Positions 14,105-50,177 of a DNA stretch of 64,000 nucleotides are shown one piece after another. Source of the DNA: Chiloscyllium plagiosum (lineage: Eukaryota); assembly GCF_004010195.1 (NCBI RefSeq), contig NC_057756.1, positions 2,916,776 to 2,980,775 on the forward strand, read 5' to 3'. The notes beneath the pieces were generated by a model that saw only the letters and a program-made list of their open reading frames with translations, made no database searches and was not told the DNA's origin. Both the position numbers and the translations under genes were made by a program. Each line of letters opens with the position of its first letter. Position 1 is the first letter of the stretch.

Positions 14105-14131
14105 AAAGCGTCTTAATTACCTCTGAGAAAG
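14105..14131 (+). CDS. Candidate micro-exon E1 (27 nt, phase 1-1): xSVLITSEK
   Basis: Acceptor atttctctgtttgattgttgacAG; donor AAG|GTAAGT (perfect consensus); open frame. Confidence 0.7.
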
Positions 14132-15024
14132 GTAAGTGCCAAGGGAAAAAAAAAGTCAGCAGTCAAATATCGTAATTACTTTTCCAGATCAGAATTGGTT
14201 AATAAATTGCAAATATGGTTGGTATGCAGCTGAGTTCTGGAAAAGCAAAATTATGACGAGAAATTGATTTTCTGCATAATCTGTTTTTCAATACTTAAAT
14301 ACGTGTTATGCCATCATGATACACAGGAATCTGTTAAGACTGTCATACTTTTCGAAGCATCAAGGCATATCAGCGCAGGTTGAAATGCCATCCTGCATTT
14401 GAGAACATGAATTTAACATGAAGTCAAAAAGTGCCGAAATATGCCCCGTTGTGCAATGCAAAAATGGCGAAAAAACTCACCTCTTTTGAAGTCGAATTTC
14501 CTGTCCCAATTACATTGAACATTCCACGGACTGTGGTGCCTCTGATAGAGTCGCAGAATGCATAAAGTAGAGAGTGTCAGTAGTCTACAGGAAAAATGAG
14601 TGTGAGACTGAGACATTCTGTGGGAGTAAGAATATCTGATGATTATGACACAATTGTTTTTTTCTAACGCTTCATCCACGTGAATGTTTATGATTTAAAA
14701 GAACTTTGCTGCATTCGTCATTCGCTGATTTACTTTTGCAATTGTGGAATGCTGATACAAAATTGGCTGTCCATGCTTATATAAAAACACATGCATGTGT
14801 GAAAGAAGTATAAATGGTGTACAAGCTTTTGCTATGTCGTAATCGTGGAAAATGAAGCATTGGAAGATTGAAATTCAGCTCTGTCTCACTCACGAAGTTA
14901 AAGGTAACATTGTGTAAGAAGTTAAGGCATGCAAAGGTTTCACCAATTGAAAACACTAGTTCCATAAACGACGGAGCTTCCCCAAAATACCAATGAAACA
15001 TTGATTTACTTTTCCTTCACATAG

Positions 15025-15051
15025 TCAACAGGACAGTACATAAAGCAGATG
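15025..15051 (+). CDS. Candidate micro-exon E2 (27 nt, phase 1-1): VNRTVHKAD
   Basis: Acceptor ttacttttccttcacatAG; donor ATG|GTGATA; size, first codon and donor mirror E7. Confidence 0.55.
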
Positions 15052-18000
15052 GTGATAATTTCGATATATAAACAAGTTACCTTTTTGAAATCTTGTTAAT
15101 GATGTATTAATGAAAAGTATATTGTGCTTTTGCATTGAAAATAGCTGTTGAATGTTCGTATTAGAGCAGAATGAATAGCAAAAGGCTCAAAGGCGATTAA
15201 AAACTCGAAAAAAAAATCAACAAAATGACATTGTGGATTTTTAATGGAAAACAAAATCGTTTCTCGGACAATAGTACTCAATAATTGCTTAAATCATGTA
15301 TCAGCCTATGGAAGCAAAAACCATCATGCGCACAGTCTAATCTGTGTACAAGAACAAAACGCATGTTTCAGCGACAATACAGTTTGTAACAACTGACCTT
15401 CATGAACAGTTGTCTGAATGTGGAAAGATTTTAAGAAGCCCCATTTCTCTCAATTCTCCAACTGGACGCAGGTGATATTTCTAAGTGCTTCACGCCCATG
15501 CCGGATAGATTGTGTCCAAGAAGAAGAGACAAACAATGTTGTAGCTACAAGGATGGTAAAGCAGTTGTTAATATTACTGAGTAAAATGTGTTTGGTAGAA
15601 TGCATTCAATTCAGTTCCTGTTGTCAGTACCACAGTAATTTTATTTTGGCAGGAAAGCCTATGGTGAGGCTGTAAAGAAGAAAATATAGGAGCAAAGAGA
15701 ACTGATAATGAACAGACAAGTTGTTCTATTCCATGTGAAAAATTCAGCCATAGTTACAACACGTCACCTTGTGAAATGACGAATACCTACAGTCCATTAC
15801 TACTAGGAAGTTACTATAACATAAACTGAGGTTGAAAATAATTATTCAGAGCTAATAGCATGTTCCGCTGAGAGGACTTGCAGCTCCATAGTAATGTATG
15901 CCAGAAAGTTCAGCGTGAGAAATGTAAGTTTAGAAATCACAAACTTTAGGAAGAATAGCAAGTTGAAGAAACTTGTATTGAACACCACTTCTTTATCATT
16001 CCGAAGTCCTGAGACAACTGAAGGTAACATTAGTAGAGGGATTGTTTGTAACAGTTTATTGCAAGAGAAAGAAAACCTGTGGATACATGCAAAATATGCC
16101 TTGAATTGAATGGTAAATTTAGTAATAGGTGTATTAAACAAACATTTCGTAAATACTCAGAATAGAATCGGAAGTAACAAGTTTCCAATCAAGCGAGGAA
16201 AGATGTTTTAATAAAGTTGATGATCTTTATTGAGATGAAATCAAATAATGAACGATGAAATAGGAAGTCACAACCTTAACTGTCCTGGATGTAGAGTAAA
16301 ATGTTCTTTCCTAATTGCGTAATGTTTGGAATGAATGGAACTCGATATGATAGTAATAATCAAAAAAAAACTTAACGAAATATCAATGAGTAATCATGAT
16401 GGTATAACTTAGGCTATTTCAGTATTTAGTGCTTTGTTAATAGAATATAAAAGTTAGCTGGATTTGCTCCATTTAAATATGATGATAGATAAGGAAATAT
16501 CCGCTGTCCATTCATGACTGTATATTTGTAGGTACAATGGTAAAAACTTCAACGGCTTGAATAGACTTGCAGTACTTTTGTTGCTTGTCTCTTTGGACAC
16601 ATATATGAAGGTTGCGTACATTCAAATCTATGGATTTTTTTCATAATACTGTGAACGGTTACTAAGCTTTCACAAAAATTATTGAGTGGCATTTCATTTC
16701 GAATATCGTTTATGAGACTATATAAATTGTGTCAAGAGTAATTTACTGTGCTTGATAGATCTTGATGATCGGTGATCCATACAGTAAATCTCATTTTTGA
16801 GAGCTCAGCATGTTGTCACATATGTCTTACATTAAATGATGGACAACGCAATTCATATGTCCACGAATTATACAAATCGATTTGAAAGAGCAATCAGTGA
16901 GTTAACAATTTAGCTAACAGTGTTATTTCTTCTGAAGCATCTCTTCCACATGAAATGTAGCTTCAGTATCCACTCGGTCTGCATACCTCATAACTTTGAT
17001 TCGATCAATCCAAGGACAAGTAAAACATCCAGTCCTGCCTCTGGTCAAGTTGTTAATTGTCATGCAGGCAACATCCCAGTAATATCCCTCCACATCCTCT
17101 CCAGTGAACATATTCTGACATTCACGTGCTGACCATAACTGCATGCAGTTTACATTACTGGCTGAGAGCTTATATTTATGATTTGAAAGAAAGACCTCTT
17201 TGCTCCTATGTTCTAATCCGGGCTAATGACGGAAAAGATCGCACATGTGTTAAACCAGTCTATTTGTGCTTCAACCTCAGAGATTGATAGATATTTACTC
17301 GAAGGCACTTCATTTTTCACTACGTCTGAGGGAAATGCCCCTGCGTTTGCATATGCTATTCTATGTGCCAATACGTATCTCCTCAGGTGGAGATGCAGAG
17401 AGGTCTGTAGGGTGGTGATCTTCTATTTGCAAACAAAGGCTGTGACAACCAGCAAGCTAATTATTGACTGCCCCCGAGCCTCGTCGTCCATTGCTCATTG
17501 TATATATTTGATATCATGTTTCCTTCCAGCTTATCAACATGTCTGACTGTGTTAGTGAGAGTAATCTTACTACAGATATACAATAACACAATAGTGATAG
17601 TTCCTGTTCTGTCGGCACTTCTGTCACTATAGTCTGTTCTCCATTAAACCTAAACTTGTTCGAATGTGTCATGGTTAGGTATTTACTTTTACATTTGCCA
17701 CAAAAGTCTTTAACATCAGGCTAACCCTGCCAGCTACTAACTAGGTAACTACTGTCACATTTTGCCCCAATGGTCTCCAGCAGCCTGACCTTGCTGACCC
17801 TGCTAAATGCTGATTAGATATTTAATAATACGACTTGCTACGATCATTTTTAGCAGCCGGTGCTGAGCTCAATGATGATTGCTATCTCATCCTGTCTCAA
17901 TGCTCCTGTAGCCCCAGCCTGACTCCGTTAATTGGTGTAACTAAATACCACAAGCCCTTTGATGTGTTATTTCAATTAGTGTAAAACTACACTTTAAGCC

Positions 18001-18099
18001 TTCTCATGATTTTGTACTCCTTTAGCTCGTTGGTTGTCACAGCTTTCATTTTCCATACTCTGCAGACATATCAATCAATATATCAGGCTATACATCGAA

Positions 18100-18260: not shown

Positions 18261-18326
<66 letters not shown>

Positions 18327-19207: not shown

Positions 19208-19243
19208 AACGGGCGAAATGTGCAGCAGATCTAAAGAAAACAA
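19208..19243 (+). CDS. Candidate micro-exon E3 (36 nt, phase 1-1): ERAKCAADLKKT
   Basis: Acceptor tatttcttgtatttcAG; donor CAA|GTATGT; open frame. Confidence 0.65.
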
Positions 19244-23855: not shown

Positions 23856-23882
23856 AGGAACTTTTGTCCAAAAAAATGGAAG
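23856..23882 (+). CDS. Candidate micro-exon E4 (27 nt, phase 1-1): KELLSKKME
   Basis: Acceptor tttgaatctctcttccAG; donor AAG|GTGAAT; open, helical and charged peptide. Confidence 0.65.
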
Positions 23883-26589: not shown

Positions 26590-29078
26590 AGCAATTTATC
26601 ATTCTGTTACGTTTCTAATGGAGTTAAGTTATTCCAATTCTCAATTCATTTGTTTGTATATTTACAGAAGTTCTTAAAAAAAGTGTATTTTGCTTCAAGT
26701 ATTATAGCTTGTGCAATCGAATTGTTTCTTAAGAACTAAGCTTTACATGTGCATTAATAAGAAAAGATGGAGTTGATGCAATATTCTTAAAATATGTTGA
26801 GGAGAATTCGTCTTGTCCACTTCAAATTTGAGAATCTTGTCGGGATCAATATCCCAAATAGCGTGTTGTGTTTGGGATTCTTGGTCTCAAACACAATGCG
26901 TCGTGAATCTTCATGTGTACTTTCAGTTGTTGCACTTTGTTGGTATAAACAGGATGTGTCTTGTGTGGTAAATGCTCTTTACGACAATGCAACTTTTACG
27001 GAGTTGAAAGAAGCCCTTCAAGGGGTTTACTTTTACAGAATTGAGAAAGGGTAATGTTTTGGGTTTGGGAGACAAGCAGGAGTTGGTGATACTTCATTTT
27101 TCTGTGTGAAAAGTGGAGTTACTTATAGCATTAGCTCGACGTTTACGAATGGTAGAAATGCCATTCAAACTTTGGAAATGGTAAGTATTTGGTTAAAAAT
27201 GGAGCAGCCTGAATTCGAGGCTTAATGAAGAAATTAAACAATTTTAATAGAAATCGAAAACAGAAGAAAACGCAAAAAAAGAAGAGAACATAACTATACC
27301 AGAGGGAAATAAAAGGAGAGGAAAGCCATAAAATAACTTCATAAACAGAGTGATTCTGTACTTCTGAGTTTAGAACTGAAAATTCATGCTCGATTTTAAA
27401 TGGCAGAAGTACCATTGAAATTGGGGAGCAGTAATGAGGTGAATAATGAAGAAATATCAAATGGTAGTAAACGTCGATTCAGCATTTTTTAAAAAAAATC
27501 TCGAAGCATTGCCTTAGTTAGACGAAAAGGACGTAGAAGACATTCTCAGATTATTTGATAAGGTGGTTAAACAGAAGGAATGGCCAATTACCATTTCTGG
27601 TTATTCGAGATCCATGCAAAGTTTGTAGGTAGATCTAGTGATGCATTTGCATCACGATCAGAAGAGAGTTTGGGGAGTGCGTAGAGGTGTTAAAAAGGCA
27701 TATTGAGTGAATATGAACTCATACCACACGCCTACAGAAAACTTTTTTATGTGTCTAAAATGGAACTGTTCTGATAACACAGAGTTTGAACGAATTGAGA
27801 AAACAAACTTTGACAGTTGGTTCAATGCATTGCAAATAGATGAAACATACAGAAAGAAAGGATGAAGCAAGGTAATCTTGAATGGTAGTCAAATCAATTG
27901 GATAGGCATCTGTTTTGGAGAAGTGAAAAAAAAATCACTTCTTGCAGTGGTGGCAACTGATCAGGAAGAATGTAGTGTGAAGATGGCTAAATATGCAATG
28001 GAACCTTCAGACGATTATGACTTAACTCATAAATCCTGGATTGGACTCCGACATTAACATCAATTGGGGTTTCAAAATTGGGCAAAAATAATATCCTTAA
28101 ATTGTGAAGGGAAAGAACATCTCATTTGAAATAGTTAAGACTGTTTTCCAGAGGATGAAAAGGAAAGCCATGAAAGTGAAACAAAAGTTAAACAGAATTT
28201 GCCTTGACTAAAAAAGTATGCCACTTGAAGTCTCAAAAAGGAAATTTTTAAAGAAGTTTAATTACAATTGAAAGCACATGTAAAAAAAAAACTACAAGAT
28301 TATACAACTGCAGCATAGGGAATATGAAAGGAAAGGAAGGCACTACCTGAATGAAGTGTGGAACAGAGTTGTTTTGATCTTCGGAGTTGGACTTAAAATC
28401 TCATGCTTGATTTAAAATAATGGTGATACCAGTAAAATGGTGGAGTTTTGATGAGGACAATAATGGAGAGTTTCGAAAAATTACTCTGAGCAAAATGTAA
28501 AAACAAACATAAACAAACAGGAAAACGCAGTGAACTCTGATGACGAGTTAAAAGAAACGATAGTGGAAGCTAAAACGCTCCAAAAACATGTATTACCAGA
28601 TCAGGGAATGGTTCTGAAGAAAGATCCAAGTGCCTTTCAAGAATGCATTTGCTTTGGTAGAAGTTACTCAAAATGTCAGGAACAATAGATGAACAAATTG
28701 GAAATGAAGGGGCTTGGGATGGAGTCAATCTTTGTTCGTGAGCAAGGTGGAGATACGTAAATCACAAAAAAAGAATTGTCATCTAAAAGTGATACCATGT
28801 AGAATTTACGGTAAGAATAGCAGTGCTCCATTAGATAAGGTGAGGTTGGAGATTCCGGTGAAAATTAGTGAAGTATTGATCGGAGTAATAGGAAAAAATC
28901 TCTTTACTACAAATGCCGTTTAACCTTGTGAATGATATCTTCGGATCAAAGATGGGAGTGTTGAATCCTTCGATGTAATGTCAGAGAAAACTCAGACAAC
29001 TATGATGTTGAAAGAACTTGAAAATATTCACTTTGTCCTTAAACTTTGCATGTTTTATTTTCCCAAAACCATTTAATG
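26590..29078 (+). mobile_element. Gmr1-like Gypsy 5' block, copy 1 (LTR 3' end, degenerate PBS, gag, protease)
   Basis: Gag-like DEKDVEDILRLFDKVVKQKEWP near 27520. The LTR end resembles 36050-36272. Colinear with 29085-31516. Confidence 0.75.
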
Positions 29079-29084
29079 AGTGGC

Positions 29085-31516: not shown

Positions 31517-31699
31517 AACATGCATTCTGACCAGTCATCTTCAAATTCACTGTCCTTCCTCCTTCATTTCTTCTCAAGTTACAAGCTGTAGCTTTGTGCC
31601 CTTGTACGTACAGAGGAAGCATCCCAGAATAACGTGCATGTTTTTAGTTCTGACAGCAGAGCTGAATTACAAAATATATCTGAAAACCTAAAGCAGTTT

Positions 31700-34500
31700 T
31701 ATCAAACAGCATATACAGAAAAAATATCTTAGTATGTCACAGAAGGTTGCTTTCTTTTTTAAAAAAAGATTTGATTGGAAAACACAGATCATCATTTATT
31801 CACGCAGATGTTAAATGGAAGGAAGGTAAGCCAGTTGCATTATCGTATGGTTAAAAAAAAGGTTTTGCGGGTAGCACATAAATTATCTTTAAAAGCTGGT
31901 TTGGAAGTCAGGACAAGTCAAGCTAAAGGAGGATTCTTTTAAATTGTTCTGAAGTGCATAGGGACGTCAAATAATGGAAACATTTAAGCAGTGATAAACA
32001 TAGGTAAGCTTAATACCATTTGCATTGCGTGCATAGGGCCCCTCCATAAAGAAAAACTAAAAGTGGGTACAAGGATTTTGTGATCATAATTGATGCGTCT
32101 CGTGGATTGCCAGAGGCTGTTCCACAACGTCGTATCAAAACCAAAAGAAATTCAGAGGAGGTACTCTTTTTTTGTTTAACCATGAAGAGATGACACACAG
32201 AGATACAATTCGAAAAAAAAATCGAATTTTACATCAATGTTATTTAAGAGCATTCAGAGCGAAACAATTAAATGCAATGCATATAATTTAGCATGACAGG
32301 GAGCATTAAAACGGTGGCATTTAAAGGCTGTGTGGATGGATTATAGTCAGGAGCATGCAGAGGAATAGGCTAAACGAAAGCCATTTGTATTTTTTTTCTA
32401 AATAAAAACGTACCAAATTAATGAGCTAAATTCACTAAATTTGAATCGATTTAATGCGTTCGAAAGTGGGACACTGAAATTAATTAAGGCAAATTCGTGA
32501 AGTCAGTTTTCAGAGTCCACACTATTCGCATATGAGCTCAATTTCACTGAAGATTCACTAAAAGGGATGAGTTGGCTGGATAGCATTAAAACAGCAGGAA
32601 AAAAGTAGCATTAATTAATCTGCAATTGGATGCAGGATAGCACTGCAGATCAATAGTTAGCACTGCTACCTGATTGTACTTGGAACCCTCGTTCAATTAC
32701 ACCTCCGTGTGAGTATCTGTGTGGGCTTTGCACTTTCTCCCTCAGGCAGCATGGAATACCTCTGGGTGTGCCCGTTTCCTCCCACAGGCAAAGCGATGCA
32801 GTTTAGGTAGATTGGCCATTGTAAATTGACCAAATTGCGAAGTGAGTGCAGGCTAGATGAAATAGCTACAGGAAATGCAGGTATGCGTGGATAGGATAGG
32901 AGGCGCATCTGGATGGGATGCTCCTCAGATGGTCATTCTGGTCCCAATGGGGCGAATTGCCTGCATTTCCACTGCAAGGAGGAAATCAAAATATTGTGAT
33001 TTTGTAACTGCCGATAAAGTGCTAGTGTTAGTCTGAGTGTAATCTTTCAAGAGAAGGGTTACTGGATCTTATGAAACAAAAATGGTATTGATTACGCAAA
33101 ATAGTTTGATGAGAACATCAGATTAAAAAATAATAAATCGCACAGTTGGGACAATGTCAATATGCTCAAACTTATTTTGATAGGTAAGGAAAGCAAAATG
33201 GTTTAAAACAGTGATACTGTTTACAACACAGAGGGAAGAACCAATTTCAGATGATTCTGAACTGGACTTGGATCAACTTAAATTGGACAATTAGGAAGTA
33301 AGTTCTCAAGAATTGGGTTAAATTCTTAATTAAATTCTGAATATTTATTTCAATCAGGTGGGGCAATATGTGAAAAGAAGCTGTGTGGACTAAACATATT
33401 GAATGTTATGTATATTTAGAGAATTCTGTTCCACTTAAGCAACATGCGAATGTGATTATACTTCTAAAGTTGGCACAGTTTTAAAAAAAAAACACGTTTA
33501 GCTGTGCTCAAAAACAGTTTAGTTAAAGTAAGTTGCAACCCATGAAGCTTATTCATAGTCGTGTTGCCAAACCCAGATGCTGTCCAACGACTAAGAGGGG
33601 ACTTTCACAAAGTCAAGGCAGTCACAAAACCTGGTTTGCATCCTATTCCATGTTTGGAAGACTGCATTAAGAATGTTAGACAAGCAACTTATAATTCCAG
33701 GATGGACATAATCAGAGGATACTGTCAGGTACCTTTGAATGAGTGAACAAAGTCAATTGCAGTTTTCGTGACACCAAATGGAGTGCACAAATTTAAAGGC
33801 ATGACATTTGTTGTCAAAAATGCATCAGTCACATTTAAAAGACGAAGTAATGAAGTCATTTTAGCATTACTGAATCAGGACTTGTAAATAGACAATCTGT
33901 TGATTTTAGTCCCATTTGAAAGAATATTTTGAGCATCAATTTTAATAATTCGATCCACTTTGCAAGGTGGTCTTCGTGTTAAAACTGGTTAAAGTACGTT
34001 CGAAATAGTCCAAGTCTTGTTCTTGGGGCATACTTTTCGAAATGGTCAAATGGGCACCAGGGAATGGTTTGAATGGTTTGAGAAATGTCAAAAGACACCT
34101 GAAAACCGTACAACTCTGTTCAACATTGCTCCCCCTTTGCATAACCTAATTATGTAAAGAGATTCAGGTAGGCTATTGAAGAGAATGAGGTACTTGTTGC
34201 TGCTGTACTCTCAGAATAAGACATTGAAAACATAAAAAAGCATACTTTTGTTTCCCTGAAAATTTAATAATAACCAACAGAAATATTAGAAACTTGCAAA
34301 TAAGACCTTGTGTTTGATGTTTCCATTGCAAAACGTTTCTGTGGCAATTATATATACTGTGCACAACTCTAAAGGATATCTGTAAAACAAATGTAAGATT
34401 GAACTTTCAACTCTGTTTAAATGAAGCTTATTATTGCATTCATTCAGTTTAAAAATAACCTACATGGCATGTCGACAGAATGTAACTTCTAACGTGATTT
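31700..34500 (+). mobile_element. Gmr1-like Gypsy pol remnant in integrase, RT, RNase H order
   Basis: Integrase IACIGPL / TKSGYKDFVIIIDASRGLPEAVP at about 32020-32130 lies upstream of RT PNPDAVQRLRGDFHKVKAVTK...PIPCLEDCI...DIIRGYCQVPL at 33561-33746. Confidence 0.8.
32630..32980 (+). mobile_element. HE1/V-SINE-like tRNA-derived SINE inserted in the Gypsy pol
   Basis: tRNA-like head (gttagcactgct...gttcaatt), V-domain-like tctgtgtgggctttgcactttctccc, and a gattggccat...aaattg core. Confidence 0.75.
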
Positions 34501-36272: not shown

Positions 36273-37143
36273 ACATTCAGCGCCAGTATATTAGAGAGAC
36301 CCGGGGTAAGCATTTACCAGAGGCATATGTTTTAAAAAAAAAACATAAAACCTTCGTTATTAAATGACGATTGGAGAGGCTGGGATTTGTCTTCTCAAAA
36401 AAACTGTCCACCAGCTCCAAGCTACAACTCAAGTGTGCTTCTGAATATTGCCACGCTGCCTACATGACTGCATTTACAATTACAATCAAAACGCCTAACA
36501 AGTTTTATGGAAAATCAACCCGCTTACATGTCACCACGTCCCTAATCAGTCAGGCACACCAGTCTCAATACACAGTAATCATCACTTGCAATTTTTCCTT
36601 TAAGAGACAAATCATCGTAAATTGGAAGACAGAATCTTGAATCTCTGCCGAGCACCTCTACATGTTTATCAACAACATATGATGCCAGTGGAAGAAGATA
36701 AGAGCTCACAACATTTCTTTTTCATATCTCAGAGAGAACTAGTAATGGCAAATTTGTGCCGATCTACACAGAGAAGTTCTCTTTCTATTACAGATGACAT
36801 TGATTTTAAAAAAAAAAAACTCGTTGCCTGTCATTTCAATGGCAAAATGTGCAAGTACATCCGAAAAGCAAAGTATCAAGAGATGGAACGAATGTATGAA
36901 TGTATAAAAGAGCTGCATGTAAGTTGATTATGAGCGAAATCAACAACTTTCAGAGATTATATTTTTTTTATCAAAATTATTGCAAATCAATCTGTTGTCT
37001 CTTCTAATTTGAGCATTTACCCAAACCTCAAATGTAACATTGTCCGAAAATTTTACAGAAAAAGGTTAGGTTGCTCTATTAAATGTTAGCAAAAATGAAA
37101 AATTGTCAAAATAAGATATATTTTTATTGTTATTTATTTGCAG

Positions 37144-37173
37144 AATTCCAAAGATGGAAACAGTCTAATTGTG
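37144..37173 (+). CDS. Candidate micro-exon E5 (30 nt, phase 1-1): EFQRWKQSNC
   Basis: Long T-rich acceptor tttttattgttatttatttgcAG; donor GTG|GTCAGT; open in phase 1. Confidence 0.6.
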
Positions 37174-38779
37174 GTCAGTTATGTCAATTCTGCAATATAT
37201 AGTCAACAGTGCACAATTATTTATATCTTTGAGGAAATCTATGCAAAGATTGCTGTTTTATATTTTCCTTTGGAAATAATTTAGCTGCACAAGGTGTATA
37301 AAAGAAAACAATGAGCGATTACGAAATGTAACCTTTATATTTAACTCCATCAAGTCTAGGGTAGTTTCATAGTTTCTAAACACGATAGATACACACTTCT
37401 TTGAATCTACATAGTTATTTCTAATTGCATTTTGTTTACTTCGCTTCTGCTGATTTGCCAATGTATAAACGGAAATGTATGTCTACTTGATATATTGCTC
37501 GAGATGAACATGCAGCATCAGATGGATAAAAGGTTCACACGTTTTATGGTATTGCTATGCATATTAATTTTGGGCCAGATTGCAAAAGAAAATGGATAAG
37601 TCCATATTGAAATTTATTTGACAGGGATAGAATTAAGGGTGACATTGAAATGTCACTTAAAATTACGTTAGTTGAACATCACTAGCATATTAGCATTTGC
37701 ACGCTTCATTGCTCTTTCTTTAAAAAATGTCCGAAATATCAGAGAACAGTTTCTTTTGCTGTTAAGATTCTGTAATTAATTATATCTCATTCATTTTTAC
37801 AATGTTAAATGCAAGTCCATGGTATATTCTGATATTTAACGATTGAGGCAAACAATCAGCATTTGATTGTATGCACAGCAGGGAAATAAACACTTTCAAA
37901 TAGAGACTTGAAGTGGCAGAACTGGTAAATTTTGAGATTGCTATCTATTTTGATTTTGGGTAATATCAATGGGGAGATGAAATGCAGATGGCTGACTGCT
38001 TCCCAAACCACGACAATCTGTCGTCCACCTCAACACAACAGACAGATTCTGCCCAACTTTTCAATCTCAGACTGTTTGTCTACATTTACCTGCATGCATC
38101 GTCCATTGTAACCAAAAAAATTAGGAGTGGTGTGCACACAGATCACTTGCTAGTTTCCATACAAATTCGAGTATCGCTGTTATAATATTTGAGGAACTAA
38201 ATGGGGGGACCAAATGGCAAAACACATTAAATCTCTGGTTAGGCAGCGTCGTGGAAAGTAGGTGTAATTATGCATATCATGCACCTAACATGACTGAAAT
38301 ATTTTACTCTGCTACTCATTTTAAAACAAGCCAGTGATAAAGAACAAAAGCAATAACCGCTGGAGAGATTTTCCTGGTCAGGACGCATTTGTTGATCGAA
38401 GGTAAAGTTAAATTGTCTGCTCCAAATGACTTAAGACTAACTGTCACTGGAATATGCAGAAGACAGGGGATAGGGTAAGAACGGGAAGGAGTAAGTAATA
38501 GATATAGATGGAACATAGAAGGAGCGAAAGATAGTTAGCACCCACAAAAAAAGGTAGATAACAGTAGGCCATGAAGAAAAAAATGCGGCTCAAAACGACA
38601 ATAATAGGAACAAAATAGTTTTCTGTGTTGTACCCATTCCATCATCAACCCGAGGTTATGGGAATGATTAATGAACAAGTGAAGAGTAAAAGCTTTGGAA
38701 AATAAACATATCAAAAGGCTGTAGTGTCCCTCAGCATAAATGCTATTCATTCAGCCTGTGCTCAGCCTGGAAAAGAATA

Positions 38780-39290
38780 GAATTTGGACACATAATTCAG
38801 TGTCGTGTTGAAGTGACAAAAAGCTGTAACTTTTTGTCCTTTTGTCGACAGAGTGTAGCGGTCTGCTAGGGGTTCACCTGTCTTGGTCTCATCTACTCAG
38901 TGTAGAGATGATGACATTGTGAGCAGAGAATAGTACAGAACGGATTGAACGATGCATGTAAATCAATGCTTCACCTGAAAGTTGTGTCTGACCGTTGATA
39001 GTGAGTGGGACTGGATGGAAAATAGCATTTTTTACATTACGTGGGAAGGTGCACTTTCTATGACAAGTTGTTGACATTGCAGGTAAGGTGAACAAGGCTG
39101 TTCATCTCAGTCTATGGTGGCATCACGCTGTTGAAACCTATTTGATCTAGATGTTTGTGGGGTGGAAAGTGAGGAGCAGCTGAATAAGGGAAGAGAATGA
39201 GTCAGGGCAGAAGTGCAGGAAATGGACCAGATAAGACTGAAGACATTACTAATCACAATGGCACTGATTGCTCACGAGAGGAAAAATAAT
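38780..39290 (-). mobile_element. Old PLE-like remnant
   Basis: Purine-rich text weakly resembling the reverse complement of the PLE C-terminal region seen at 53200-53750. Confidence 0.4.
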
Positions 39291-39844
39291 AATAAGTACA
39301 AGAGAAGTAAAGCTAATTTCTTTCCATTTATTACGATCAATAGGCTCCATTTGCTGAAATTCATATTGATTGCACTACTGTTGAGCAATGTGTCTGCTCT
39401 CTTTTTGAATCTGTGACAAATTAAACAAGCAAAATGAACAAACATTAATTGGAAGATTATTTCCTTTATCTCCATTATGCAATATCACATCGCTCATTCA
39501 CAGTTAATAACATAAAATCCGAACATATGAAAGCATTAATTCCTTGAGGCCGTTTCGTATTTCCTATGGAAGACAAGTTAATAACTCCTCTTATATTTGA
39601 CAACATCCTCATTGTCCACTTTAATTTGAGGAATGTACAGTGTAACATCATCTCCACTTGGTTCTTCATTTTGTGATTTAACGGGTAATACATTCTCACT
39701 TTGCTTCTCTTCCTTGTCAAATTACTTTTTTATTACTATTCGCAATCATCTCTTTCACAAAGGGGAACTGGGAAGGTTAATCACTGTGTACTTGCAACTT
39801 TGCCACAGGTGTAGCAACCGCATGCCACAGATTAAGTACAAAGG

Positions 39845-40140
39845 CCTAGTGGTATTGCCTCTAGCTTATCTGTCCAGAAATTCAGCTGAAATTCCGGGGT
39901 ACTAATTTCAAATCCTGACCAGTCAGATGGTGCAATTTGAGTTCAATGCTAATTTTTATTTAAGTGTCTAATGATGTCTAATTCAGAAATCCATCTGATT
40001 TATTAATATCTTGTCTTTCGGGAGGAATTTTCCACCATTGCCTTGTTTGGCCTGCAGGTGACTCCAGGCACATAGCAATGTGGTTGACTCATAAATGCCC
40101 TCTGTACAAGGAGGGGAATAATTGATTAACAGCTAGTGAG
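39845..40140 (+). mobile_element. SacSINE1/DeuSINE-like SINE
   Basis: Head ggcctagtggta...ttcaaatcc; conserved core gtgactccaggcacatagcaatgtggttgactcataaatgccctctg. Confidence 0.7.
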
Positions 40141-41039
40141 TAATGTTTTTAAAAGTGCCTTGCAGATCAATGGTGGTATTGTTCATAAAGAAAACCCTGA
40201 TGGTTCCATTGCTGCGAGTTTGTCAAGAATTACGGAATATATTGGCATAAGAAGATTTTTTTGTATGTGGTGTTTTCTTCTGCAAGAACACAAAGCAGCC
40301 CCATAAACCTGCATTACCTTTCCAGCTGCTGAAATACCTCTCTTCGCAAGGAGAGAACAAAACATGAAAATATAATCTCGAAACTTCAGGAGGACTATTG
40401 ACAGGATATATTGAAATGAATATGATTAGACTGCTATATATGATCACATATTTTACATCACGGAATATTTAGACATTAACCTTAAACAGCCTTAATGAAT
40501 TAGTAAATCAGCTTAAAATAACATTTTTTTCAGAATCGCATTTGTTATATGAACAATAGCATCCATGTAAGAAAACCTCAAATCTGATGATATGTCATTC
40601 CAAAATCCACTGACAGAAAATAATCACGTATGGATTTTCCTTTTCGCTCTACTTACAAGGTTAAACATTTGTTACTGAAGTTGCAAAAATAAACAATTGC
40701 TGATGCATTATCAAAGGGAAATCAAGTTTGACATGGGAGATGTTCCATTCGTCTGGAAGGATACAGCAACAACAAACATGCAGGATTTCAATAACACTAC
40801 AAGCCAAAACAATAGATTGCAATTTCACAAAGTGCAATACAAAATATCTGCCTTGATTAATTCTTGTGCGCTATTGCATGAGGCTTATCGACACATTTTC
40901 TCCTAATTGCCCAACCACGTTTTAAAAGTAACTTTTTCAAAAACACTGACTACCAAAAAGACAGGCAATCTGTTGCTTGTGAACATCAGCAAATGAAAAG
41001 GAACGAGGAGATGCAGACATAGCATGATCTCATAAAGTC

Positions 41040-42400
41040 AGTTCATTTAACTCATTTACTGTAATTCCGTAAGGACATTCCATGCCCAGTAACCAAACGG
41101 GGAATGAGTGGATTTGTTATTTCTGGATTTCCAGAAAGCTTTCAACATGTCAATCAAAGTGCTAATGTATAAGATTAAGGTACATGACGTTGCAGGTAAT
41201 GTGTTATCATGGGTCGTAGATCGATTAATGAACAGAAAGCAAATAGTTCAGATTACATGGGTGCCTTGCTTTTTGGTTATCAATGTCCAGTAGTGTGCTC
41301 AGTGATCAGTCATGGGACTGCAATTATTTACAATTTACAAAAATGCATAGATTTGCACAGCAAATGATTTATGTAAAATATTGCACATGACACTATAACG
41401 AGTAGTAGAGGTAAATGTGTAGAGAAGACTGAAAGTCTGCAGAGATATATAATTATGTTAAGTCAGTGGGCAAGGACCTGGCAGAGGCACGAAAATATTG
41501 GTGAATGCGAGGTCATCCATTTTCTTAGGGATAACAAAAAATAACTATAATTTCAATGCTGACTAATACAGTATGCTACTGTGCAGTGTGACCTAGCTGA
41601 ACTTGTGTGCATGAATCACAAAAGTTAGGCTGCAGGTGTAGCAGATCATTAAGAATGGAAACGATCTATTGTTCTTCATTACAATAGGGATAGCGTTTAA
41701 AATAAAGAAGTTTATGCCGGAGCTGTGTAGGAGTTCGTGAGACAACACCTGGCATATTGTGTACAGTTTTTTTTTCTCCTTACTTGAGAAAGGATGCAAT
41801 GGAGGAGATGCAGGGGACGTTCATTAGATTGATTCGAGAATTATGAGGTTTCACTTATGAGGAGAGGTGAAGTAGACTGGATTAGAGTGGTGCTGCAAAA
41901 GCACAGCAGGTCCACCACCACTTTAATCCTGACTCGGGTTTCCAGCGTCTGCAGTCCTCGTTTTTAGCAGGCTGGGTCTATTAAGTAGACTGGGTCTATT
42001 TCCATTAAGATATCGAAGCATCAGGTAGATTCTTATAGCAACATGATAATTACTAAGGGAATGGACAATCTCGAAACAGGAAGTTTGCTTCCACTGATTG
42101 GTGAAACTGTATTATGTCTTAGAGCCTCAAGATAAGGCAAAGCAGAGTGAGGACAAGGTTGAGCAGGAATTCCTTCGCCCAGGGTGTTTTCTACCTCTCG
42201 CTTTACATGCTCAGTGAAGAATATGGGCTTGCCCCGTTGAATGATTTTCAGGCAAATATAGATAGATTTTTTAATAGTTAAGGGATTAAGCTGACTGCTA
42301 ATTGGAGCTGTGTGCACAAAAGTTCAGCCATGACCCTAATGAATGGTGGTTCAAAATCGATGGGCCAGATATAGAATTCCTGCTCAATTTCTTATTCTCT
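41040..42400 (+). mobile_element. CR1-type LINE 3' remnant with a small PLE-tail insertion at about 41881-41965
   Basis: DLLFLDFQKAFN...KIKVHDVAGNVLSWV (RT). The insert gagtggtgctgcaaaagcacagcagg...tccagcgtctgcagtcctc is flanked by agtagactgg-like repeats. Confidence 0.8.
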
Positions 42401-43078
42401 TACGTCTTATGAAGCGACTCGTTTTACTTGTTTATTCTTTGGTCAATGTTTAAATTCATAAAGCTGCTTTGCAATGCAGGGCCAATAACTACAGGGGACA
42501 GATGTTGGTGTTTCAAAGTTGTATTCATTGACATCTGTCTGACAGTCAGCAATATAAAAACTGTGCATGCTATCTTTGGTGAGATTTTCCATTCTGAACA
42601 TAATTAAAGACGAAAGTGACGGCTGCAACTGCTGGAGATTATAGTCGAAAAGTGTGGCCTTGAAAAACACAGCAGGTCAGATAGCCTCCAACGATCAGGA
42701 CATAAGTGTGTTAAATGATTTCCTATGTCTGAAAGAATATATTGGCAACTTGCCCTCCAGACACATTAGCTCTCTCTGATTTTGGTTGTCTCCAGATTGT
42801 CAGTTGGAAAATGATTGGTTGAAAATGGAGTACATATGAATTTAATGTTACATACGAATTCAATGTTACATAGCTGTTTACATATTTGTGTTATGTCAAA
42901 AAAGTATGTTACAAATTATGTTTTCAGGCCTCATTGAATTTCTAACTAGGAATTATATGTGTATGTGTGTGTGAGGGAGAGAAAGAGAGAGCAAGAGAGA
43001 TATTGATCAATGCATCATCAGCTTGTTCATTGTATAACTGAAGTTTATCATGTGAATTCATATTTTTCTCTCAAACAG

Positions 43079-43105
43079 GAACAAGTGACCTTCAGTTCGG
43101 AATAG
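43079..43105 (+). CDS. Candidate micro-exon E6 (27 nt, phase 1-1): GTSDLQFGI
   Basis: Acceptor tatttttctctcaaacAG; donor TAG|GTAAAA; open frame. Confidence 0.6.
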   Translation, partial: EQVTFSSE

Positions 43106-44339
43106 GTAAAACATGGCATGGAAAGTACTGAGATGACGAATTGCTCAATTGCTGCATGCACTTCTAATGAGTTGTATTTTCCCCAAAGGTCGCTGGAATA
43201 TATTAGTGATAATTATTTAAGAAAGGGCTATGATTATAAACAAACACAGGTAAGGAAAATAATACAAAAGCGAATCTCTTTTACATAACAATACTTCTTT
43301 CAAGAATGTTTTGGATGAAAGCGTGGAGTTCAGGTACATTCGAAATCGCACCACAGGACTATAAATATGCGGCCATTCAAACAGAGTGTATGGAATTCAA
43401 ATGAGAGAGTGAAGCATACTATAAATAGGGATTGGCTTTCCCCCTACCCCAACCCACTGAAATTCCCTGGAAATAATTTAACATTAATCCCATACAGCAG
43501 CCTAAAAAAAAGTCATCATGAATACAATATCAGTTCTACTTTTACTGGGGAACATAACATCACAATTGTATTCTGAACGATTGCTGACTCAGAAGTTCAG
43601 GTACTGTAAAAGCGCTTATGAGTCAGATTTGCAAATTGAAATAGTTAAAATGCAAGTGTGGGTTAATTGCATATGTCAAAGTAGTTATTCTTTTCTCTCT
43701 AGGAACACATTTCACATTTTAGTTAGATGGTTGAACTTGTGTGCTTCATAAATCAAAACAAGCACATTGAATCTGGCAGCATTGTCTGGGAATATGCATG
43801 TTATGAGCATTGTTTGTTAACATGTTTTCTCTAAATTATGTATTACGAGATCAAATAACCAATGACGTATTCTACAACGAGTAATACACATAATGACCTT
43901 GAAATGGAAAAGCACTACCTAAGACATCGATGATAAGCGATATCTAGTATACAACTGAGTACTGTTCTACATTTTAGTTAATAATGATTTCATTCGGCAA
44001 ACATTAACTATAATTTTCAGTTCAGTAATTGGAATCATAAGAAGAGAGACATTAACTAATTTGAAATTCATCCATACATTTAATTTCAGGATCAGAAATA
44101 TACAGTGGGCTACATTAAAATACGCAACTCAATGCATTCAGTGGTTAGATACCCAGAACTATATATTGCTTACAAAACAGACTTTCTGTCAGTCTATGTG
44201 AACAGAAGAATTCTTATAATGTTTGAAAAAGGATCTGAAACGTCTGCGTGTTTGAACGTTTCTGAATCCCAGAATGTACCAATATTTCTGGTAAAGATCA
44301 GAAAAACAAATGGGAGAACGTGAGAAGTCTCTAAAAATA

Positions 44340-45430
44340 ATTTGCAACAACAGAACGTTCATAAAATAAAACTAAGCAAGTCTGGTAACATCTTTGAAAA
44401 GAAAATAAATTTTATGTGCCATGTCCTTTGACGTTTCTTCAGAAGTGATGGCAACTCATAAAATGTTAGTATATATGCTTACGCTGCAGGTATTGAAGAT
44501 GCATTAAACTGGAGGTGGAGTTGAAGGTGGAGTTAAGAGAGAGAGAGACAGAGAGCGACAGAGAGAGACAGACAGAGACACAGACAGAGGGAGAGAGATG
44601 GAAAGAGAGAAAGCGATAGAAAGCTGGAAAGAGCAATAGATCACAGACGAAGGAATGGAGTAACTGAAAGTCTGTGAGAATTCATAGTTCCAAACGGGAA
44701 CCAATGGTAGCTGACAACTGGGTTGTGTCAGTGGCCCATATGACGACAAGAACTGGTGTTTGGTTTTTGGTCTGCTGCTATGGGAAATGTTTTAACGTTA
44801 TTCAAATTCATCACAAGGGCTGAAGGCTGCAGGGCACCGCAAGTGGATAAATTACATTATATTTCAGCACTTTGCGTTGAGTATCGCTGGTGGTGTCCAG
44901 CAAGCGAAAGAGATGTTTGCCAGGGAACAGCGAGGGTTCCTGAAGTGACAAACAACAAGAAAATGTGTCAGACTTTGCAAAAAATAAATCAGGTCGCCAA
45001 GTCTTCTTTTTCCCTGTCCAATTTCCAGCAGATCACATTGTGAACAGCAATCACATTCGAGTTGAGTGAGCCAACTGGAAGGAAGTCATCACTTGATTTT
45101 TGAAGATGGAGCAGGGGCCTTAAGTACTGATGAGCGACATCATAAATGGTCAGCAGTCAGGCATTCCGAAATGACATTTAAATGTTATTGTTGGAATGGG
45201 TAAGAAACTGATAAGACCCTCGAAATATTGAATTCGCTATTCAATTCTGAAGGCTACATGGAGGCCAAGTGTAAAATGAGGTGGTCATGTTCAATCTTCG
45301 AAATATCATTCAGCAAACCTGAGGCACAGATGTTGTCAAGCGAGCATTCTCGAATGTCTGTAACAGCACTACCGCTTTCGCCGAACTAATGTGTGCTTTT
45401 ATTTACTGAAGATTAGTTGATGCAAGGGTG
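44340..45430 (-). mobile_element. Decayed PLE-like 3' region containing a (GA)n/(GACA)n microsatellite at 44535-44620
   Basis: Weak resemblance to the minus-strand PLE tail (acgtttcttcagaa; tgaaggctgcagggc; aaatgaggtggtcatgttc). The microsatellite is seen directly. Confidence 0.45.
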
Positions 45431-45559
45431 CTGAGTGGTATGTTCCAAGGCAACACATTGCACACTTTGTGAGGTATTTCTTTTAAAGGTGTAACAATAA
45501 TATCAGCTTGAATGGATGGTGTCAAACTCTAACAGAACCTGACATTTAGTTCAAATTTC

Positions 45560-45942
45560 AGTAGCTGTTGCGGTTTAGAAACTGTGATACATCTCGAATT
45601 CGGAAAGAATAAAAAAAAAACCCGCTGGAGTTCATACATTGTGCCAGCGCTTATTCTAGAGCTTCTTTCCTCTGGAATTAGAGAAAATTTGCATATGAGT
45701 GAATTATTTTATTGAATTTGCCTTTATCAAGTGTTTTTTTATGGGATGTTACTACCTTGAAAAAAAACAAATCTGTAGTAGATAACTTATATGCTGTCTT
45801 TGTATTTTCTTACTTAGTATTTTAACTGCAATGTAAGAATAAAGTTTGTTTACATTTACAATGGCATTTTAGGATAACAAGAGAGCTGAGTTCTAGGATG
45901 TCTTCTTAATCTATTTAAGGGTGTTACGTTTGGTCCACAACA
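45560..45942 (+). mobile_element. Partial solo LTR related to the Gmr1-like LTR
   Basis: Ends tctaggatgtcttcttaatctatttaagggtg...ggtccacaaca, similar to tctaggatatcttcttaacatattttaagcgg...ccctaaca at 36222-36272. Confidence 0.55.
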
Positions 45943-46039
45943 ATATCAGTTACTGGCAGCAGGAACGATTAGATGTATAGCATTGGCATTCCATATAAAT
46001 GTTACTGTATTAATTTTTCTTTATAAACGCATTCAATAT

Positions 46040-46725
46040 TGTCAGAGTACTACATACTGTCCCTGTGCGAGAAATTTCCTAGCATGCACATCATGACCAA
46101 ATTGCCATGACTTCTGGGTTCATTAGTGCATTGTATACGCCAGCAACTCTGCCAGGTGATCTAAAGGCGCTCGCCATCTTATCACTGCACTGCTGATACA
46201 ATGATCCACGAAATTTTCTGTGGGCATGATTTTGAATTCCTCTGCGGTAGGCGATGGCACTTTGTGGTGAAAGGGTTAAAATTGTGTCCCAATACATGTG
46301 TGAATCTAACCGAAAATGGAAGGTGTCGCTTAGTCCCGTGTGAATCTTATTATACACCTTCCCGTGTGAATCTTCCTATCTGTATGTAACCAGAATGGAA
46401 TGTGTTTTTTAGCCTTGCTCTGCTGTTCACATGCATGTTTATATCTGGACAAGAGTATATCAGCTGGAAAAGTCTCCAGTTCGGTAGAGTCTGCTCCGGG
46501 GTTGCGTTTAACCGCCGAGCGTGGGTTGTTGGCAACCGCTCTACGAGAACTGACAGCTCCCAGTTCCGGTAACACGTAGAGTGAGTATAAACCAGACCCG
46601 TTGTAAGTACGAGACTGGTTGTGGCGACACTGCGGGGAATAAAACACTTATATTCTAGCAGACTCGCCTCTTGGCTGTTTGTTCTGTGTCAGACTACTTT
46701 CCTGCGAGCCTGGTCCTTGACCTTG
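46040..46725 (+). mobile_element. Putative solo LTR, CpG-rich
   Basis: Three gtgtgaatct repeats (46297-46372), TATA-like gtatatcag and gtataaa, AATAAA near 46638, and more CpG than the flanks. Boundaries uncertain. Confidence 0.5.
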
Positions 46726-46739
46726 AGAATTTTTTAAAA

Positions 46740-46985
46740 CACACTTGAACTCAATAAAAGAAAATCTGGAATGAAGAGGCTAATGATGACATAAGTCCAT
46801 TGTTGATTGTCAGGAAAAATCTATTTGTTTCACTAATGTTCTTGAGAGGACGAAACTGCCATACCTATCTAGTCTGGACTACATCTGATTTAAGACCAAC
46901 AACAATGTCGTTGACTCAAGCCTACCCTCTGGGATGGGCAAATTTCGCTGGCCGATCCAGAGATGTTGTCATCCCTTAATTGAAA
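46740..46985 (+). mobile_element. SacSINE1/DeuSINE-like SINE, 3' part
   Basis: ctaatgatgac...tgttgattgt...gtttcactaatg...caatgtcgttgactcaagcctaccctctg, matching the 39845 copy. Confidence 0.65.
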
Positions 46986-47935
46986 AAAAAGAATAGAAAA
47001 TCCTTCTCAAAAAATCACTTATCCTTCGATGTTTTGTGACTGGTCTAAACCTAATCCAATTTATGCTGACTGAATAAACCATTAAATTACAAATACTGCT
47101 TTGAATTTTGGTAACAACATCAGACTAAAAACGAAACACTGAGAATGCTGAGAAAATACAACAGTTCAGGCAGTATCAACACCCGAGAAACTGCACTGAA
47201 ATGTGAAGTCTTTTAAGAGTCTATTTTGGATCTAAGCTCTAATAGTCTGACATGTCTAACTGTATTTCTGTTGTACAGAATTTGGCAGTCCTCCCATATT
47301 TTCCAATAATTGGCTGTGTTTGTTTTTTTTCCCGCATTCACATGATTCAGCCTTTAATAAATTCAGACTACTTAAATGTCAGCCGTGTTTCATTTCAATG
47401 ATTTGACTGATTTCACAGGTTTTATTTCGACGAAAAGGAATCATTCACAAATTTAATCTGTTCATCATTTCCTCCGTCTATTCAACTGAACATGCCTTAA
47501 GGTCTGAGGTATCCTCTACCAACTTATCAATGATACCATTAAACTTAATATCGTTTTATATTTGTTTATTATTGTAACATATTACGATTATGTATGCTTA
47601 TATCTTTCAGTCCAATGCTTCAGGCAAAATTGAAGCTATGTCCGATTGCATTATCGTCTGATAATACATACTTAATATTAAAGTCATTTTTTTCCACCAG
47701 GTAGCATTCGAGGAACCAATGTTGCTGTTACTCCAGTGCACAGACGCATTGTAATTACCTATCCCTGAAATAGGAGAAATGACTTCCATGCTAAAGATGA
47801 ATTTCGTGGAAATGAACACGAACCAGATAACAGTTTTAATAGTAAAGTTCGTTATGAATTCCAGAAATTGTAACTTAGGGAGCTGTTCAGTAACGTAAGC
47901 AAAATATTGACGTTCATACTTTACTTTTCTTCTAG

Positions 47936-47962
47936 TTGCGAGAAATCTCTACCTGGAGAAAG
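47936..47962 (+). CDS. Candidate micro-exon E7 (27 nt, phase 1-1): VARNLYLEK
   Basis: Acceptor tactttacttttcttctAG; donor AAG|GTGATA; open frame. Confidence 0.65.
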
Positions 47963-49577
47963 GTGATACCTCACTTTCTTGCGCTTTTGTTTTGATAATA
48001 AAAAAAAAACTTTTCATCATTTACCTTACATTGGTATCCACTCGTAACTTTGAATTTATTTCAGTAATTTCGAAAATACTTCATTCATCCATAAAATGGA
48101 GTTACTTGTTTTAAATAATGAATCTGTTTTGTCAGTGATGCGGTTAGTGGTTAATATCTATTATTCTGCCATATTGTCCAATTGAAAAACTAGTTCAATT
48201 TCCATCATTTGTTCATTTCACACAATTTTATAAAGTCTGTTCATTGGATATGTAATCAAGTAGGGATCATATCATGTCTGTCTCTAATCGCTTTGCTGAC
48301 TAAAGAGAGTATTGCATAATGCAGAATGTCGAACGATAGTTTGACGTGCCTCCAATTCTTGTGTGGTTATGGAGAATAGGAGCAGTGTCAGATTATTGCA
48401 TTTCGTTTTTTTTTGTTGTTGAACGTGATTACAATTATCCTTGAATGGTAAATCGCTATTGATCAAAAGCACATCTTAATGATCCCCTTACCTAATGAAT
48501 TGCACACATATCTTGTTTAAATATGATTTCAAATTTGTCTTACAGAAGTCAAATAACAAATGAATTAAATAATGTGCGACTCATCATCCCGAATACCAAA
48601 AGTCCAAGAAATGAACATGACAAATAATTAAAGATTAGATTATGTCCTTATGAATCCAGGAGAGTAGGACTTTTGTATAGGTTTGACTTCTGGGCGCTCG
48701 AAGGAAATATATGTCAGCAAACCGATCAAAGAATTGTCATTGCCTCCAACTTATTTACAATAATGTAACTCAAAAAGTTTGCCTCCCCCTTGCACAGGGA
48801 TGAATAGTCTCCAATTAATTGTTTCTTAATTATTCATTCGTTATTGGATCTAGGCACGGCTAGTTGCCGCAGCATGTGTCCCATTCCTATGCCCTTTTTG
48901 TTAAACAACCTTTTTGAATGACTACTCGACAATCCAAAATTTAAATTGATTGGGGATTTGTAATTATGTTACAAAAATCCTGAAGAAGCAATGCCGCATT
49001 ACAACTAATGAGGTAAAAATAACAATATATGTTTGAGCTAGCACTAAATTGAAGCGAAATGAACATTCTCACATTGCTGTTAGTGGTTGCTCTCAACTTA
49101 TTTTCTAGAGCTACATAACCGGCATCGTCAACTAACTATTCAGTCAGCACTGTCGACCACTTAATAACCATTTTAAATAGAGATATTTCCTGAACGTGCA
49201 CTGTACTTTAATACGGAATTAGTCGAGACTTTATTGAAAATTTTGCTCGATAAGGAAAAGGGATGAAACAGTTTGTAGCATAGACAACCAGTGTCATTAA
49301 AGAAATGTTCGATGAAATTGTAGAGTAGACAAAGAATTGAATATCTCAAGTAAGACTGACAGGAATTAAATTACCCAACCTAATGTGTCATTCCAGTTTC
49401 CTTCTCACTTCCTCTTTGATATGAATGCTGTTTTTATAAATTGCCTTGAATTTCATTTCTGAGATATTATTTTGTTTTCTTGCAGGTCACTATATATTCT
49501 CAAACAATGTTATGTGTTTTGCATTTTATTCATATCATCATATTGGATATCTTTTTTTATTGTTTACTTTCTGTCAG

Positions 49578-49613
49578 AAATAGTCCGAATGCAAGTGGGA
49601 CTAAAAGTCGCCA
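49578..49613 (+). CDS. Candidate micro-exon E8 (36 nt, phase 1-1): EIVRMQVGLKVA
   Basis: Acceptor tttttattgtttactttctgtcAG; donor CCA|GTAAGA; same size, first codon and terminal A as E3. Confidence 0.65.
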
Positions 49614-50150
49614 GTAAGAAAAAAACCACGTCTCTCTATTTTATAACGTAAAGATTCCAATGATGTTGTCGAGACAATTTCACAGTATATTGTGACAAAA
49701 GCAACAATGATATATTGTGCCTAATTTTCCCTCTGGGCATATTGAGTTTTATGCATGTAGCCTTCTTCTGCTCTTCATTACCAGTTATTGATTGGTCGGA
49801 AGCCAATCTTTACCACTGCTGTTGCCTGCCAAAAAGAGTTAACTCGATTTCTGAACTCACTCTCCACCTGTAGATTACTCCTCACGCCATTCTCCAACCC
49901 AATTTCAGCATACTAACCAGCATTGTTCAGACTAAAATCATTATTTTATTTCTAAACAAAAGGTCACTGGTTCCTAAACGTTACTCTGCTTTCTGTCCAC
50001 ATATGCAGACCTGCTGAGTGTGCCCAGAAATTTCTGAATTTGTATCTATCCACTTGGATTGATCCATATATTATCATTACATAACAATAATCAATCTATT
50101 AGTTGATGGTCAATTCTTATTAATACTGCATTTTTAATTTTACTTTACAG

Positions 50151-50177
50151 AGAATAAAATTAAGGAGCAAACATCTG
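50151..50177 (+). CDS. Candidate micro-exon E9 (27 nt, phase 1-1): KNKIKEQTS
   Basis: Acceptor tttttaattttactttacAG; donor CTG|GTATGT; starts with AG like E4. Confidence 0.7.

Follow-up and report, generated by a model that had tools for sequence, protein, structure and literature searches.

What kind of gene is assembled from exons of only 27 to 36 nucleotides (nt), and does it follow a larger repeating plan? This question is raised by a 64,000-nt window of the 3.56-Gb genome of Chiloscyllium plagiosum (contig NC_057756.1, referred to as C47, positions 2916776-2980775), for which an earlier note described nine micro-exons (E1-E9) and proposed that they repeat as a five-exon unit encoding 49 residues, i.e. 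seven heptads. Plain coordinates count from the first position of this window; values below 1 or above 64000 continue the same count along C47. It is very likely that E1-E9 are genuine exons and stem from the central part of a very large gene, whose main repeat is a 21-residue exon pair and not the five-exon, 49-residue unit. On balance, the nine exons probably belong to what is likely a single gene of about 2.3 Mb, encoding a long predicted coiled-coil rod built from 36+27-nt and 21-nt exons and likely ending in a C-terminal B30.2 domain.

All nine exons are present at the sizes originally described (27-27-36-27-30, then 27-27-36-27). They are bounded throughout by AG and GT, are of phase 1-1 and, when joined, encode 88 residues without stop codon or proline. 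The boundary features pointed out in the earlier note were found as well: E2 and E7 both start with T (giving Val after the preceding G) and use the donor GTGATA, E3 and E8 are both 36 nt long, start with AA and end in A, E4 and E9 both start with AG, and E1-E5 add up to 147 nt. Some of these features are common in the block of 63 exons to which the window exons belong (an AA or AG start in 14 of 23 36-nt exons, an AG start in 9 of 38 27-nt exons), others are rarer (the GTGATA donor in 3 of 63 exons, a final A in 3 of 23 36-nt exons). The 27/36-nt class can be regarded as real because a generic splice model without training on this locus returned, over 264 kb, 22 candidates of 27 nt on the plus strand versus 4 on the minus strand, and 17 versus 2 candidates of 36 nt. 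This asymmetry, together with the related gene models described below, bears out the view that the micro-exons are genuine and does so better than their periodicity, which had been offered as independent support and is not needed as proof.

Individual exons differ in quality. The scores in Table 1 stem from a model trained on 137 exons of the locus, some of which lie within the window, while our scripts draw on general knowledge for splice-site frequencies, for the scales of hydropathy and helix formation and for short domain motifs. E2 and E6 score lowest among E1-E9 (12.2 each). A candidate extra exon of 18 nt between E4 and E5, absent from the earlier list, outscores six of the nine; a six-residue cassette, which equals 18 nt, distinguishes isoforms of one database relative. 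If this candidate is used, the spacing from E3 to E8 becomes 55 residues instead of 49. E5 is one of only two 30-nt exons among the 63 of the block, and the exon preceding E1 measures 36 nt and lies about 9.9 kb before the window start (-9867). In helix-forming composition, E1-E9 equal the rest of the block.

The window is a small part of a much larger array of phase-1 micro-exons on the plus strand, which sets in near C47:2.24 Mb and leads up to a B30.2 (SPRY) exon at 4.577 Mb. In C47:2.23-3.89 Mb (1.66 Mb), which was read end to end, 180 exons on the plus strand score at least 17, versus 8 on the other strand. They comprise 110 exons of 21 nt, 34 of 27 nt, 23 of 36 nt and 13 of other sizes, encoding 1464 residues in total. 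The following 0.67 Mb (C47:3.89-4.56 Mb) was sampled in six stretches of 10 kb. The window exons sit in a block of curated 27-, 30- and 36-nt exons extending from -133047 to 383011, which is flanked by blocks of 21-nt exons, with more 27/36-nt blocks thereafter. One candidate at 200168 was dropped from an initial list of 64 because joining it created a stop codon; the remaining 63 exons read through without a stop and contain three prolines in 638 residues. In the 21-nt blocks, 41 non-independent duplicated exon pairs share an identity of 0.80 within the exon versus 0.685 in the flanking intron. Two of these blocks (C47 ~2.58-2.74 Mb and 3.44-3.55 Mb) contain multi-exon segmental duplications with 65-70% identity through the introns, and two exon types tend to alternate in them.

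The array is closed by the B30.2 exon, which retains an intact frame of 177 codons and would be spliced to the window exons over a distance of 1.6 Mb. No other B30.2 was detected by tblastn and hidden Markov model (HMM) searches in the 1.91 Mb read end to end, nor among the own-genome matches in the interval from 2.2 to 4.57 Mb, where 150 of 258 candidates had been scored. Its closest paralogues are located at 0.995 Mb (plus strand, 60%) and 1.297 Mb (minus strand, 42%). The first of these (C47:994509-995036, 60% identity) and two B30.2 relatives at C37:22229878-22230375 and C37:20720070-20720591 (40% and 33% identity) are possibly further family members.

Within this array, the repeat unit can be read from the position of hydrophobic residues. 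In the 23 36-nt exons of the block, residue 1 is hydrophobic in 70% of cases, residue 4 in 78% and residue 8 in 74%, giving an a/d pattern inside the exon, and position 4 is Cys in 5 of 23; in the 38 27-nt exons, position 3 is hydrophobic in 61%. Accordingly, a 36+27-nt pair constitutes three heptads in register. This equation of 63 nt with 21 residues was already part of the earlier note and proved to be the recurring unit of the array. The spacing between 36-nt exons is 21 residues in 9 of 22 intervals and 49 in just 1 of 22, and self-similarity of the block peaks at lags of 7, 21, 63 and 42 residues (z 5.0, 4.3, 3.8 and 2.9), with z 0.6 at lag 49. A gene model from elephant shark behaves alike (z 4.9 at lag 21, 0.5 at lag 49). 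An upstream stretch of 11 exons has a period of 3.48 residues (p<0.002 versus residue shuffles, 0.006 versus exon reordering). In the window itself, the exons between E3 and E8 place hydrophobic residues at only 4 of 10 a/d positions of a shared register, and the rod is likely to be irregular or to have a hinge here.

Further support comes from other cartilaginous fishes. In a midpoint-rooted tree of 26 B30.2 rows, a limited sample, the domain at C47:4.577 Mb groups with 8 cartilaginous-fish rows at 100/100 (9 rows in the clade), apart from the 17 other rows. The corresponding database proteins (Table 1) carry names that do not match their domain content: in the models scanned, Pfam assigned SPRY/PRY but neither Ig nor RING nor B-box. 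Internal sites at which isoforms of these proteins diverge involve 6, 9 and 9 residues, and in elephant shark two versions of the model are set apart by blocks of 9, 10 and 12 residues. Such isoform models in databases rest on RNA alignments. The block sizes of 6, 9, 10 and 12 residues correspond to exons of 18, 27, 30 and 36 nt. A profile of seven genomic 27-to-36 junctions matched the elephant shark model six times (0.14 expected), four of these matches being near-identical internal repeats, and a ray model twice, while none of three shorter models gave a match over threshold. The array thus resembles these models in two respects: its B30.2 belongs to the same clade, and its rod consists of blocks of 9 and 12 residues that share the junction motif. 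It differs in size, as the models comprise 175-1722 amino acids and the array would encode at least 1464 from 180 exons, ahead of the mostly unread 0.67 Mb. The family is common to chimaera, skate, ray and sharks. Word-based protein searches returned few relatives (4 of 268, 1 of 16 and 2 of 481 candidates) and no full-length orthologue, and no description of a coiled-coil-plus-B30.2 micro-exon family was found in the open-access literature, supplements aside. A protein atlas provided leads only, namely SPRY clusters of the A33-like and BTN1A1-like kinds and a cluster of 137 members represented by a protein of 1579 amino acids.

A plausible scenario would then be a single transcript across the array, in which 36+27-nt pairs contribute three heptads and 21-nt exons one heptad each to a common rod. 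As every exon is of phase 1-1 and a multiple of three, exons could be duplicated, lost or skipped without a frameshift, and rod length may have been tuned in evolution by exon gain and loss as well as by alternative splicing. Two or more chains may wind into a parallel coiled coil, possibly cross-linked by the Cys residues at d positions. The rod would place the B30.2 heads a long way from the N-terminus with its anchor or leader, and these heads may bind a ligand, by analogy with TRIM and butyrophilin proteins. The window would represent a less regular part of the rod, where the 21-residue module is broken up by additional 27-nt exons and a single 30-nt exon. Conceivably, this picture extends to a single gene of about 2.35 Mb, the size class of the dystrophin gene, with at least 250 micro-exons and a disulfide-linked rod of more than 2,000 residues (~300 nm) that bears a B30.2 head as well as a leader peptide. 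The product would be a B30.2 receptor of cartilaginous fishes, either secreted or anchored at the surface, and skipping of 6-12-residue cassettes would determine how far it reaches. We put this forward as a tentative possibility that could well prove wrong.

Several observations weigh against a single gene with a long rod. End-to-end coverage stops before C47:3.89-4.56 Mb, and the stretch read includes 27,364 N. No first exon was identified among several candidates inspected for the plus-strand array, and no spliced read was seen for array exons; RNA reads over positions 36500-51000 and the B30.2 exon region were repeat-derived only, which, at the small shares covered (about 2% of run X5 and 6% of run X6 read, none of X6 placed), speaks neither for nor against splicing. 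E1-E9 alone lack a significant heptad period (p 0.37), and E1, E2 and E4-E7 are hard to place in one register, with hydrophobic residues at 4 of 15 a/d positions. The database relatives are far shorter, a short hydrophobic N-terminal leader was seen in only two of them, the elephant shark and skate models, and of the 10 window exons only E7 and E8 come closer to the elephant shark model than shuffled sequences do (p 0.015 each, without correction). A complex prediction with two copies of the skate relative scored 0.01 and carries no weight either way. Separately, one of several unproven first-exon candidates is an ATG-started phase-1 segment with a leader-like hydrophobic core at C47:2185019-2185103 (L177).

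How the exons are grouped above the 21-residue pair allows for other explanations. A gene built throughout from a five-exon, 49-residue unit repeated in register appears very unlikely, given the spacing and lag values above. The tenth exon, expected to be 30 nt long, measures 36 nt, and in an alignment of the two five-exon groups including 100-base flanks, the four exon pairs were indistinguishable from random pairs of the same size (mean z -0.02, p 0.50) and the flanks remained at background, while a true duplicate pair elsewhere (96337/96931 and 126017/127411) reached z 4.4 in the same test. Across 13 pairs, similarity is likewise at chance (amino acids p 0.084, nucleotides p 0.48), and the 18-nt candidate would break the count. 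Still, between -9867 and 79844 the sizes X-27-27-36-27 (X = 36, 30, 36) occur three times, each group being closed by a long intron (13.3, 13.5 and 11.4 kb), and a distance of 49 residues from the start of E3 to that of E8 brings their registers into agreement. However, these groups encode 51, 49 and 51 residues, hence preservation of register by 7x7 is not a rule, and chance alone accounts for the size pattern (p 0.43-0.52); across the block, sizes at lag 5 agree at 0.54 versus 0.49 when shuffled (p 0.24). Agreement of boundary features is highest at lag 5 (p 0.0018 versus random draws, 0.014 versus reordering; 1 of 55 real runs), and the GTCAG donor, used by just two of the 64 exons, recurs at a distance of five exons (~3% by arithmetic), both features having been chosen after the fact. 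Shared donors between otherwise unrecognizable exons are weak evidence, however, because donor hexamers have already diverged in a proven duplicate pair that is still 78% identical. From the ancient, register-preserving multi-exon duplication that the earlier note envisaged, growth by exon duplication is retained and the 49-residue unit is not. Owing to the shared splice boundaries, one old local five-exon duplication, which would not be the repeat unit of the gene, has roughly an even chance of being true; if real, the duplicated unit would measure 51 residues and have shrunk to 49 in one copy. A 12-exon unit was also tested and was not significant (10 pairs, p 0.13).

The exons may also be real and yet be divided among at least two tandem genes, each about 1 Mb long, with the window gene ending at about C47:3.21-3.28 Mb without B30.2 as a rod-only protein like the chicken BG tail. 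This is unlikely in our estimation, although two 36-nt exons 1.04 Mb apart (C47:2237664, L139, and C47:3280118, L040; -679111 and 363343) are identical at 29 of 36 bases, each following a similar 27-nt exon and preceding a 21-nt block, and one of the largest exon-poor gaps lies just ahead of the second. The pair, which could mark the corresponding positions of two genes, hints at a megabase-scale duplication. A duplication inside a single gene accounts for this pattern as well, however, and no convincing terminal exon, leader exon or B30.2 remnant was found at 296-363 kb; a non-coding match between the two heads that was followed up proved to be a dispersed LINE-like repeat. Even less probable is decay, whereby the locus or its window part would be a pseudogene or a set of rarely used exons from an ancient array, with E1-E9 no longer forming a regular rod. 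E1, E2, E5 and E6 indeed combine the weakest heptad signal of the block with atypical residues, and the duplicated 21-nt exons differ only slightly more at codon position 3 (0.23) than at positions 1 and 2 (0.17-0.18). Against this stand the intact splice sites, the stop-free and proline-poor reading of the 63 joined exons, the intact B30.2 frame and the unaltered helix-forming composition of E1-E9.

With a likely single rod gene as the preferred reading, known systems provide partial precedents. In chicken BG genes, as outlined in two studies (PMC5938342, PMC4046983), a heptad tail that is modelled as a coiled coil arises from many 21-nt exons with a split first codon, and few of 18 or 24 nt, the number of which varies; these genes feature an Ig-V domain, a transmembrane exon and 27-37 tail exons, i.e. 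long tails instead of a B30.2 end. The array shares the 21-nt one-heptad exons, which occupy the blocks flanking the 27/36-nt block of the window, but differs from BG in its three-heptad 27/36-nt modules, more than 180 exons, megabase size and B30.2 exon, and no Ig-V was found. Butyrophilins (BTN/BTNL) combine a heptad region with a following B30.2, according to PMC12841164 and PMC4046983. The array likewise has heptads on small phase-1 exons and a probable B30.2 end, a domain with a sequence match to BTN3A1 structures at E 8.5e-17. Unlike BTN, it contains far more heptads, its B30.2 falls outside the sampled BTN rows, and neither IgV/IgC nor a convincing transmembrane exon was found. TRIM58, TRIM21 and pyrin, the best sequence matches in the PDB, share a coiled coil followed by PRY-SPRY; the array deviates from TRIM proteins by its micro-exon build, a rod many times longer and the lack of a detected RING/B-box. 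Enterophilins are mammalian proteins with a long leucine zipper of about 30 heptads plus B30.2 and neither Ig nor RING. On this description, they have the same two-part design at much shorter length.

The negative part of this comparison relies on several searches. For IgV, tblastn with two BTN-type IgV regions and a motif scan yielded nothing credible in the 1.91 Mb (27,364 N), and a Pfam V-set search listed no match near the array (150 of 1319 candidates scored). For RING/B-box, there was no motif match and no tblastn match below E 0.26 with two queries in the same 1.91 Mb. The Ig and RING hallmarks of the chicken BG, butyrophilin and TRIM families were thus not found in the sequence covered, and Ig, RING and B-box readings were rejected on these results. 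No convincing transmembrane exon precedes the heptads in the stretches inspected; a transmembrane-like frame at -128873 was rejected because of its poor acceptor. As a side observation, an open reading frame (ORF) with a long hydrophobic run directly follows a 27-nt exon (L043:1094-1270) behind a weak acceptor, either by chance or as an alternative membrane-anchoring last exon. A type II C-type lectin with coiled-coil neck was discarded (0 of 35 Lectin_C matches on C47, no credible motif in the flanks), as was a tetherin/PV1-type transmembrane-coiled-coil gene, since the sole PV-1 match lies on another contig (tetherin itself was not searched).

By analogy, the array may work like a chicken BG heptad-exon tail joined to a butyrophilin/TRIM-type B30.2 head. 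It would take the heptad-exon-plus-B30.2 design of butyrophilins and BG tails to megabase scale by means of a 36+27-nt three-heptad module, and could serve as a test case for the splicing of hundreds of micro-exons over megabases and for the question whether B30.2 proteins that have neither Ig nor RING represent an ancient branch of immunity in jawed vertebrates. Compared with the gene itself, the five-exon arithmetic is of little importance.

Table 1. Micro-exons of the window, the terminal B30.2 exon of the array and coiled-coil-plus-B30.2 relatives from databases.
Feature	Position	Strand	Description	Boundaries	Score
E1	14105..14131	+	27-nt phase-1 micro-exon	cag|..G|gtaagt	20.2
E2	15025..15051	+	27-nt, weak	tag|TC..G|gtgata	12.2
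E3	19208..19243	+	36-nt, Cys at usual d position	cag|AA..A|gtatgt	24.1
E4	23856..23882	+	27-nt	cag|AG..G|gtgaat	23.8
Candidate extra phase-1 exon	31808..31825	+	18-nt, between E4 and E5	cag|AT..G|gtaagc	22.0
E5	37144..37173	+	30-nt	cag|AA..G|gtcagt	15.9
E6	43079..43105	+	27-nt, weak, composition atypical	cag|GA..G|gtaaaa	12.2
E7	47936..47962	+	27-nt	tag|TT..G|gtgata	17.4
E8	49578..49613	+	36-nt	cag|AA..A|gtaaga	17.2
E9	50151..50177	+	27-nt	cag|AG..G|gtatgt	24.6
E10	63653..63688	+	36-nt, beyond E1-E9 range	tag|AT..G|gtgagt	29.0
Terminal B30.2/SPRY exon	C47:4577499-4578019 (L181:7499-8019)	+	phase 1, micro-exons immediately upstream		
XP_042192744.1			'nuclear-pore anchor-like'		
XP_055510696.1			'TRIM69-like'		
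XP_069775384.1			'A33-like'		
XP_038672306.1			'TRIM39-like'		
XP_042191566.1			'TRIM58'		

A second array of 27/36-nt micro-exons lies head-to-head with the first on the minus strand (C47:1.50-2.09 Mb; 1.30-2.09 Mb with its B30.2 exon, L143-L150 and L161-L169) and is likewise directed at a B30.2 exon of its own (C47:1296638-1297162, the 1.297-Mb paralogue), in keeping with a B30.2 end for the plus-strand array. A GC-richer stretch at C47 ~2.1675-2.172 Mb (L141 and L176) contains broken frames that we take to be endogenous retrovirus-like; one stretch scanned gave no Pfam match. Within the window, positions 2000-3800 and 52800-54400 presumably harbor broken reverse-transcriptase-like retroelement frames, and a Pfam scan of one frame from these segments returned no match. 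The E4-E5 intron includes a tandem duplication of about 2.46 kb (26680-31640, 74-85% identity), in which an ORF at 30835-31152 matched only the Pfam family DUF4799 below the cut-off (E 0.068) and is presumably a retrotransposon remnant. Finally, a high-copy short repeat at 46260-46660 is covered by RNA with poly(A) loose ends in run X5 and is likely a transcribed short interspersed element (SINE).

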